64,000 nucleotides of DNA from Escherichia coli O157:H7 (GTDB lineage Bacteria > Pseudomonadota > Gammaproteobacteria > Enterobacterales > Enterobacteriaceae): assembly GCF_013167455.1 (NCBI RefSeq), contig NZ_CP038328.1, one strand, 5' to 3'. How positions within the stretch are numbered: the stretch's first letter is position 1; every line of letters starts with the position of its first letter. Below are positions 27,801 through 30,800 of the stretch, one piece after another. Made by a program: the position numbers.

Positions 27801-30800
27801 TTGTACATCTTCAGCGAGCCGCCTTCCTGCGAGAGCTGCTTCGCCACACGTTTAATCACCTGGTGGCGCGGGTCGGCGATGGTATAAACCGGATGACCAA
27901 AACCAATGACCACTTCTTTGCTTTCCACCCGCTTGCGGATATCGGCTTCGGCTTCGTCCGGCGTTTCGTAGCGTTGCTGGATCTCCAGCGACACTTCATT
28001 CGCCCCGCCGTGCTTCGGCCCGCGCAGTGCACCAATCGCGCCAATAATCGCGGAATACATATCAGAGCCAGTGCCCGCAATCACCCGGCTGGTAAAGGTG
28101 GAGGCGTTAAACTCGTGTTCGGCGTACAGCACCAGCGAAATATGCATCGCCTTTTCCCAGCTTTGCGACGGCTTTTCGCCGTGCAGCAGATGCAGGAAGT
28201 GACCACCGATGGAGTCGTCATCGGTTTCCGGCTGGATGCGTTCGCCGTTGTGGCTGTAGTGATACCAGTAGAGAAGAATCGAGCTAAGTGACGCCAGCAG
28301 TTTGTCGGCAATATCCCGCGCGCCAGAGACGGTATGCCCCTCTTTTTCTGGCAGCGTGCAGCCGAGCGCGGAAACGCCGGTGCGCATAACATCCATCGGG
28401 TGTGACGCCGCCGGTAAGGCTTCCAGCACGGTACGCACGTTAGCCGGTAAACCGCGCAGGGCTTTCAATTTCGTTTTGTAGGCGGCGAGTTCGTCACGGG
28501 TCGGCAGTTTGCCGTGGATCAGCAGATGCGCCACTTCTTCAAATTCGCAATGTTCCGCCAGATCAAGAATATCGTAGCCACGGTAATGCAAGTCATTGCC
28601 ACTTTTACCCACGGTGCAGAGCGCCGTATTGCCCGCCGGAACGCCAGAAAGCGCCACAGATTTTTTCGGTTTAATGACATGGGTACTGTTTTGCAGGATC
28701 GTTGTGTCGCTCATATTGTCCTCGTCATTGTTATCATTTGTAGGGTCGAGATTGTTGTCGGATGCGACGCCATGCGTCTTATCCGACCTACAGTTCACCC
28801 CGTAGGCCTGATAAGTCGCGTCAGCGGCGCATCAGGCATCGGTTGTCGAATACAACCAACGGGCGTTTTTTATTTCGCCTGGCTACGGACAAACAGGTCG
28901 TCGAGCTTCTCTTCGTAGTGGTAGTAGTTGATGCTTTCGTACAGCTCGTTGCGGGTCTGCATGGTGTCGATGACGCTTTTCTGCGTGCCTTCCTGGCGCA
29001 GGACGTTGTAGACATGTTCGGCGGCGCGGTTCATGGCGCGAAACGCTGAAAGCGGGTACAGCGCCATCGCGACATGAGCGCTGCGTAATTCGTCGGTGGT
29101 AAACAGCGGCGTGGCGCCAAATTCGGTAATGTTGGCGAGGATTGGCACCTGCACCGCATCGGCAAACTGGCGGTACATGGCGAGTTCGGTAATCGCCTCC
29201 GGGAACAACATCTCGGCACCCGCTTCAACATAGGCCTGCGCACGCTCGATCGCCGCATCCAGCCCCTCTACCGCCAGCGCATCGGTGCGCGCCATGATCA
29301 CAAAATCAGGATCGGTTTTCGCATCCACCGCCGCGCGGATCCGATCCACCATCTCCTCTTTCGAGACGATCGCTTTGTTCGGGCGATGACCACAGCGTTT
29401 TGCACCAACCTGATCTTCAATATGCAATCCCGCCGCACCGGCTTTAATCATCGATTTCACCGTACGCGCAACGTTAAAAGCAGAAGAACCAAAACCGATA
29501 TCCGCATCCACCAGCAGCGGCAGCGAACAAACGTCGGTGATACGGCGAATATCTGTCAACACGTCATCAAGAGTAGAAATACCGAGATCGGGCAGCCCCA
29601 GCGACCCTGCCGCCACGCCACCGCCGGAGAGATAAATTGCCTGATATCCGGCACGCTGCGCCAACAGCGCATGGTTGGCGTTAATGGTGCCAACAATCTG
29701 CAATGGATTTTCTTTAGTCAGTGCAGCGCGAAACGCTTTACCTGGAGAGTGTAGAGACATAGCCCATCCTTTGTTATCAACTTGTTATTTTCGTTGATAA
29801 CGACAAAGCAAGGGGTGTGCCACAATTGCCTTAATAAAATTAAATCTTTAATTTCAATTTGTTAGAGATAAAGTCATGAACTAATCCGCAAATATGCGTT
29901 TCAGTTAACGTTTCAGGCAATGTTTCACCGCGTTTCATTGCAACAATTATGAAACAAGACTAAACCCAATATTCGGTATCTTAACTTTGCGGTGCGCTAT
30001 GGCACATCCACCACGGCTGAATGACGACAAACCGGTTATCTGGACGGTATCTGTAACGCGCTTATTCGAGCTGTTTCGCGATATCAGCCTCGAGTTTGAT
30101 CACCTGGCGAACATTACCCCTATTCAGCTTGGCTTTGAAAAAGCAGTGACCTACATCCGCAAGAAACTGGCAAACGAACGCTGTGACGCCATCATCGCCG
30201 CTGGCTCTAACGGCGCGTACCTGAAAAGCCGCCTGTCAGTGCCAGTTATTTTGATTAAACCGAGCGGCTACGATGTGTTACAGGCACTGGCAAAAGCCGG
30301 AAAACTCACCTCTTCTATCGGCGTTGTCACTTATCAGGAAACTATTCCGGCACTGGTGGCGTTTCAAAAAACCTTTAATTTGCGCCTCGATCAACGTAGC
30401 TACATTACCGAAGAAGACGCACGCGGGCAGATTAACGAGCTAAAAGCTAACGGCACCGAAGCGGTGGTCGGCGCGGGGCTGATTACCGATCTGGCAGAAG
30501 AAGCCGGAATGACCGGAATTTTTATCTATTCCGCCGCCACCGTGCGCCAGGCGTTCAGCGATGCGCTGGATATGACGCGCATGTCGTTACGCCATAACAC
30601 TCACGATGCCACCCGCAACGCCCTGCGTACTCGTTACGTGCTGGGCGATATGCTCGGTCAATCACCACAGATGGAGCAGGTGCGGCAGACTATTTTGCTG
30701 TATGCCCGCTCCAGTGCGGCGGTGTTGATTGAGGGGGAAACGGGGACGGGCAAAGAGCTGGCGGCCCAGGCAATTCATCGGGAATATTTTGCCCGCCACG

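Follow-up and report, generated by a model that had tools for sequence, protein, structure and literature searches.

A conserved array of GTTTCA half-sites between prpR and prpBCDE of Escherichia coli O157:H7 as a probable PrpR enhancer

The intergenic region between the divergent prpR and prpBCDE genes of Escherichia coli O157:H7 contains a compact array of GTTTCA words that, judging from its sequence, is very probably the PrpR enhancer (upstream activating sequence) of the prpBCDE sigma-54 promoter. The array lies at positions 29898-29955 of the window, by which we mean the whole stretch of 64,000 nucleotides that was analysed. An enhancer for PrpR at this place had been put forward in the original prediction, and the proposal is supported by the identity of the word with a published half-site, by its rank as the top hexamer in 63 orthologous regions, by its association with prpR and by the conservation of the block in which it is found. 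The enhancer is a known element, described before in Salmonella and shared by species from E. coli to soil betaproteobacteria, and for this reason the finding is real but ordinary. What is modestly new is the map of half-sites in E. coli, the absence of the Salmonella palindrome from it, and the breadth of the skeleton in which two forward copies are followed by two reverse copies (forward-forward-reverse-reverse).

The identities of the prp genes were assigned with the NCBIfam equivalog models for PrpR, PrpB, PrpC, PrpD and PrpE. On the minus strand, prpB (28870-29760), which codes for methylisocitrate lyase, is the first gene of prpBCDE and is followed by prpC (about 27545-28798), prpD (26060-27511) and prpE (24134-26020); on the plus strand, prpR (29999-31585) codes for a sigma-54-dependent activator. 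The PrpR sequence scores far over the cut-offs of the equivalog models NF011953 and TIGR02329 and comprises the PrpR_N sensor domain, an AAA+ domain and, at the C-terminus, a helix-turn-helix, such that the nearby cognate activator expected for an enhancer, one with an AAA+ domain for the interaction with sigma-54 and a helix-turn-helix for DNA binding, is encoded next to the array. The 361 bp around the array are 100% identical to E. coli O157:H7 chromosomes in which prpR and prpB are annotated, and of 5426 complete E. coli genomes, 5219 have these surroundings between annotated prpR and prpB. Among E. coli records, 4320 of 5220 have the 73-bp array without any change, and identity of at least 99% over the 361-bp surroundings was seen in only 312 of 5221.

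The five words of the original prediction are all where it had placed them. The plus strand has GTTTCA at 29898, 29910, 29922 and 29932, successive copies being 12, 12 and 10 bp apart, and at 29950 there is TGAAAC, which is GTTTCA on the minus strand. The window as a whole is not enriched in the word (37 copies, 35.9 expected); the five copies in 58 bp are the largest cluster among all hexamers in the 64 kb, and the Poisson expectation for such a GTTTCA cluster is about 4e-7 per window. The words had also been described as helically phased, a description that holds only in part. They fall on one broad face of the DNA, within an arc of about 140 degrees, but strict phasing was not found: at 10.5 bp per turn, the centres of the four forward words are at 0, 51, 103 and 86 degrees and that of the reverse word, called E below, is at 343 degrees, with a degenerate copy, called D' below, at 326 degrees.

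The sigma-54 promoter of prpBCDE, TGGCAC-N5-TTGCT, is at 29807-29822 on the minus strand with 0 mismatches, and its conservation in an alignment of 12 enteric species is 0.88. The GG of its -24 element is at 29821/29820 and the GC of its -12 element at 29809/29808; from the usual spacing, the +1 of prpB is predicted at about 29796. Counted from the -24 GG, the starts of the five words are 77-129 bp upstream, in agreement with the distance of approximately 80-130 bp claimed originally, and the whole array covers 77-135 bp upstream of it, within the 70-200 bp upstream of -24/-12 at which sigma-54 enhancers are typically positioned. Relative to the predicted prpB start, the centres of the words are at about -105 to -157. 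In vitro, a gSELEX peak of the RpoN holoenzyme has been obtained in the prpR/prpB spacer (PMC8743547). An IHF-like site on the plus strand, TTTCAATTTGTTA, with one mismatch to WATCAANNNNTTR, is at 29852-29864, between the array and the promoter and about -56 to -68 from the predicted start; its conservation in the 12-species alignment is moderate (0.62). With the IHF-like sequence located there, outside the words, the alternative suggestion that the array itself is an architectural site does not fit. Transcription of prp requires PrpR with 2-methylcitrate, sigma-54, IHF and cAMP-CRP (PMC5566544), the IHF requirement being reported for Salmonella, through citations only.

For the comparison across species, an alignment of PrpR N-terminal domains gave 80 prpR loci from species-representative genomes, covering Escherichia, Citrobacter, Salmonella, Pluralibacter, Pseudocitrobacter, Shimwellia, Entomohabitans, Photorhabdus and Xenorhabdus, as well as many Burkholderiales and Gallionellaceae; most of these loci have a divergent prpB. 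In 63 prpB-prpR regions of Gamma- and Betaproteobacteria, GTTTCA is the top enriched hexamer (261 observed, 11.3 expected) and at least three copies are present in 62 of the 63, counts that are inflated by the many close relatives in the set (Citrobacter, Escherichia); the signal persists with one representative per genus. The repeats are thus kept in orthologous prp loci, and their loss from those loci, which would have spoken against the original prediction, is not what we found. Wherever a -24/-12 element could be recognised, the words are always upstream of it, on the prpR side. The 200 bp before prpR contain 1.86 of them per 100 bp, versus 0.049 per 100 bp elsewhere in the same loci, and the array accompanies prpR even next to an upstream gene with only about 39% similarity to prpB.

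From 83 sites of 21 genera, with one representative per genus, the consensus of the site is a-Y-GTTTCA-t. The median number of perfect copies per array is 4 (range 1-6), and it is 5 (range 3-8) when up to one mismatch is allowed; because of these medians and ranges, six half-sites per array cannot be taken as universal. In the common pattern, the copies nearer to prpB are forward and those nearer to prpR are reverse, with a modal spacing of 12 bp for the former and 11 bp for the latter and a junction of 6-18 bp. Of the neighbours in the same orientation, all 18 forward pairs have a spacing of 10-13 or 21-22 bp, and 12 of the 19 reverse pairs one of 11-14 or 20-22 bp. In 10 enteric species, the distance between the -24 element and site B of the map below has a preferred helical face (Rayleigh p of about 0.01-0.025, ignoring relatedness), and in the enteric alignment the block that bears the words is the best-conserved non-coding segment, with variable spacers.

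The E. coli array has five perfect copies of the YGTTTCA half-site and one copy with a single mismatch, for which conservation was scored in the alignment of 12 enteric species. Half-site A (cGTTTCA, 29898-29903, plus strand, conservation 0.77) is perfect only in Escherichia, and other enterics have at the same position the one-mismatch words GTGTCA or GCTTCA. Half-site B (aaCGTTTCA, 29910-29915, plus strand) is invariant in 12 of 12 enteric species (conservation 1.00) and is the first forward copy of the forward-forward-reverse-reverse skeleton. Half-site C (tGTTTCA, 29922-29927, plus strand) comes 12 bp after B; a direct copy at this place is also present in Entomohabitans, Pluralibacter gergoviae, Pseudocitrobacter and Shimwellia, and in Citrobacter and Salmonella it is replaced by a TGAAAC that abuts B, giving the published palindrome. 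Half-site D (cGTTTCAt, 29932-29937, plus strand, conservation 0.77) is common to E. coli, Citrobacter, Salmonella and Pluralibacter sp., and together with E it forms the dyad GTTTCA-N12-TGAAAC. Half-site E (TGAAACa, 29950-29955, minus strand), invariant in the aligned enterics (conservation 1.00), is the copy nearest to prpR, 43 bp ahead of its ATG. The spacers are less well kept, with scores of 0.45 between B and C and 0.41 between C and D.

All five words described originally are in this map, but a sixth, degenerate half-site had been overlooked. This is D' (TGCAAC, one mismatch to TGAAAC, 29939-29944, minus strand, conservation 0.95), located between C, 17 bp away, and E, 11 bp away, and we count it as a half-site because the same position holds a perfect TGAAAC in other genera, namely Entomohabitans, Pseudocitrobacter and Shimwellia. 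Read from the alignment in this manner, the skeleton in E. coli is B, C, D' and E, with A and D as extra forward copies.

GTTTCA is the half-site of CGTTTCATGAAACG, the published Salmonella enhancer, which is listed as the PrpR enhancer in Table 1 of PMC4987338, a review on the sigma-54 regulons of Salmonella, citing Palacios and Escalante-Semerena 2004. This 14-bp palindrome was found in 9 Citrobacter and Salmonella loci and is absent from the window, the best intergenic match having 3 mismatches. As a consequence of its absence in E. coli, the equivalence of the E. coli and Salmonella elements rests on the half-site together with positional homology. Palacios and Escalante-Semerena reportedly footprinted, in 2004, two dyad-symmetric sites of which the promoter-proximal one was of higher affinity, and a comparative analysis of PrpR regulons is said to have been carried out in 2012 by Suvorova, Ravcheev and Gelfand. 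With Salmonella enterica prpBCDE, whose enhancer was reportedly studied by Palacios and Escalante-Semerena in 2000 and 2004, the E. coli region shares the operon, the divergent prpR, the sigma-54 promoter and the half-site, YGTTTCA, and it would also share the IHF-dependent architecture; the distal dyad, GTTTCAttgcaacaNNNaTGAAAC, keeps its position in E. coli, Citrobacter and Salmonella. Unlike Salmonella, E. coli is devoid of the abutting palindrome and has instead direct repeats 12 bp apart (B and C) plus a perfected A. The output of the E. coli system is threefold weaker than that of Salmonella (PMC5566544, citing Lee and Keasling 2006), and we may speculate that the arrangement of the E. 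coli sites relates to this weaker output.

In the mechanism that we propose, the a-Y-GTTTCA-t half-sites would be the targets of the C-terminal helix-turn-helix of PrpR, whose subunits would be anchored on the array, at words with their centres about -105 to -157 relative to the predicted prpB start. 2-methylcitrate, made from propionate via PrpE and PrpC, would bind the N-terminal domain of PrpR, upon which the AAA+ domains would assemble an active oligomer. IHF would bend the A/T-rich DNA around 29852-29864, the bend would bring PrpR to the closed complex of RNA polymerase and sigma-54 at 29807-29822, and ATP hydrolysis would open the prpB promoter. That PrpR binds in E. coli, that IHF bends the DNA there, which molecule is the effector and where +1 lies are points that we infer or take from the literature, in which a PrpR operator in the E. 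coli PprpB is referred to (PMC9452892). The C-terminal segment LGISRTT[LF]WR[RK]L of PrpR is invariant from E. coli to Gallionella, although this counts as weak evidence because helix-turn-helices of this type are common among sigma-54 activators. The linker ahead of it is of very variable length among species, and a conserved helix-turn-helix on a variable linker would be compatible with a fixed half-site and a plastic arrangement of the sites.

Comparable bacterial enhancers are that of NtrC at glnAp2 and that of NorR, with three sites, at norVW. As in these systems, the prp region has several putative activator sites approximately 100-150 bp upstream of a -24/-12 promoter and roughly on one face of the DNA, where clustered sites would template AAA+ oligomerisation, and, as in many promoters of the NtrC/NorR type, an IHF bend would fall between the sites and the promoter. 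However, dimers of NtrC and NorR bind to clear inverted repeats, whereas the prp pattern consists of two direct copies and then two opposite ones, with a junction of 6-18 bp. It is conceivable, though rather unlikely, that PrpR has no need of dyads and that the unit is a group of 4-6 single half-sites, each taken by one helix-turn-helix, which would template the AAA+ oligomer subunit by subunit. Tentatively, and with doubts of the same size, the rule of such a unit might be two forward copies 12 bp apart, at least two reverse copies 11 bp apart and a free junction between them; there is likewise a small chance that the six words of E. coli correspond to a six-subunit ring, with the helix-turn-helix of each subunit on a long linker of variable length. 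If PrpR did bind single half-sites in this way, lineages such as E. coli and Salmonella would tune strength or leakiness by rearranging them.

Since 43 bp separate the end of the array from the ATG of prpR, the promoter of prpR would be expected to overlap it, and we therefore considered whether the words serve prpR as well. That they are mainly, or additionally, the operator of prpR's own promoter, with the enhancer role as secondary, seems to us improbable, and we give a similarly low weight to the variant in which bound PrpR occludes or modulates a divergent sigma-70 promoter of prpR. Autoregulation would agree with PMC9452892, where the divergent promoters of E. coli prpR and prpB are said to overlap, and with the arrays of Herminiimonas and Herbaspirillum, in which four reverse copies are found just 17-59 bp before the start of prpR. 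However, PprpR is described as propionate-independent and is thought to be under CRP control only (PMC5566544, citing Lee et al. 2005), the consensus scan placed no sigma-70-like promoter, and a looser search for the prpR promoter found no -10 element with up to one mismatch. Moreover, autoregulation would add to the enhancer role and would not replace it.

Binding of the words by a different regulator with a similar half-site, Cra (FruR) or CRP in place of PrpR, is very improbable. The consensus of Cra/FruR is TGAAWC-GWTTCA, and its half-site, TGAAAC/GTTTCA, is the very hexamer of the prp array. In the Cra operator, however, the half-sites are juxtaposed in the order opposite to that of the prp array, an order in which the prp words never stand, and the best 12-mer in the spacer has 3 mismatches; with at least three mismatches to the palindrome, a Cra operator was rejected. 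As for CRP, one site is said to serve both prp promoters and, according to PMC9452892, to overlap the PrpR operator; nevertheless, the best match in the spacer to the TGTGA-N6-TCACA core has 4 mismatches in 10 positions, and a genomic SELEX study did not recover prpB and prpR, both of them listed as CRP targets in RegulonDB. The search of the spacer with the CRP and Cra consensus sequences thus gave nothing convincing, and against both regulators stands the fact that the word tracks prpR into Betaproteobacteria. We consider it even less credible that the cluster has no function and was left behind by a local 12-bp tandem duplication or produced by chance in A/T-rich DNA. Tandem Repeats Finder did detect a weak 12-bp period at 29897-29927 (2.6 copies, 84% matches, score 41), and the units of A and B are alike at 10 of 12 bases; yet words that are kept between diverging spacers are the reverse of what a recent duplication would leave, and Citrobacter, Salmonella and Entomohabitans already have site A with one mismatch. 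Chance is further opposed by the cluster itself, since no other hexamer of the window forms one so extreme, and both origins by the recurrence of the same word in two proteobacterial classes. Duplication and chance were rejected as contradicted by the comparative data, and the array as a PrpR enhancer is the reading that we retain.

A separate 9-bp inverted repeat had been reported to overlap the predicted transcription start, and it is indeed present: GTTATCAAC-N11-GTTGATAAC, with arms at 29773-29781 and 29793-29801, spans the predicted +1 (about 29796). A perfect inverted repeat of such size appears in 2.7% of intergenic shuffles. Its left arm is within the conserved prpB leader and holds a perfect IHF consensus (29775-29787), and its right arm has a conservation of only 0.48. 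When the repeat is fully transcribed the RNA folds with -10.3 kcal/mol (z = -2.9), whereas in a transcript from the predicted +1 the hairpin of the repeat is absent and the fold has -2.4 kcal/mol (z = -1.1), such that the stable structure requires transcription to start upstream of 29801. The repeat is probably incidental, and probably not a hairpin of the transcript.

Taken as the PrpR enhancer, the array would be the operator by which propionate, via 2-methylcitrate, induces its own catabolism in E. coli. It leaves the general understanding of sigma-54 regulation unchanged. The E. coli prpB promoter is in wide use, in the pPro expression vectors and in gut propionate biosensors (PMC9452892, PMC5566544), and the distinction between invariant words (B, E and D') and lineage-specific ones (A and D) would point to targets for the tuning of strength and leakiness. 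The map of half-sites may also help to explain why the E. coli and Salmonella systems reportedly differ in output.

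The sigma-54 promoter of prpBCDE (29807-29822, minus strand) is flanked by a 19-nt direct repeat, with one copy, CTTTGTTATCAACTTGTTA, lying in the prpB leader (29769-29787) and the other, CTTTAATTTCAATTTGTTA, at 29846-29864. The copies are 77 bp apart in the window, share 79% identity and both carry an IHF-like core. The leader copy contains a perfect match to WATCAANNNNTTR at 29775-29787, and this match overlaps the left arm of the inverted repeat of 9-bp arms described in the original prediction (29773-29781 and 29793-29801). Two shorter similarities, each of 90%, connect the promoter region with the array of GTTTCA and TGAAAC half-sites proposed as a PrpR enhancer (29898-29955): a direct one between TGCCACAATT (29818-29827) and TGCAACAATT (29939-29948), and an inverted one between ATTGCCTTAA (29825-29834) and TTCAGGCAAT (29912-29921), 77 nt apart. 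Both are probably due to chance.

The -24 element of the O157 allele is the consensus TGGCAC (29817-29822), whereas comparison with the prpR loci L002 and L005-L026 revealed TGGCAT at this place in the E. coli species representative, E. albertii, Citrobacter and Salmonella. Within the E. coli genome collection, the prpR-prpB spacer gave 5223 matches, 9 of them in plasmid-labelled records, and 207 of the 5426 complete genomes had no match, the prp locus being absent or diverged in them.

In the coding regions, the C-terminus of PrpR (approximately 31375-31585 in the window, and in the compared loci) combines an invariant HTH with an AAA+-HTH linker of highly variable length; in Rugamonas and Undibacterium this linker far exceeds that of E. 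coli. On the other side, the mechanical ORF of prpC (27545-28798) starts at a GTG and encodes 417 aa; however, alignment to the family models begins only at residue 42. Translation probably starts at an internal codon, for a product of about 375-389 aa.

Loci of Burkholderiales and Gallionellaceae (L033, L036, L038, L044, L051, L054, L065, L066 and L073), and also loci L034-L061, have one additional GTTTCA at a constant distance of about 43 bp from the -24 element in the direction of prpB, corresponding to a position of about +18 to +20 within the prpB leader. In Xenorhabdus a TGAAAC occupies a comparable place, and E. coli lacks such a copy. The additional GTTTCA could be a downstream half-site for PrpR or, alternatively, an element of the leader.
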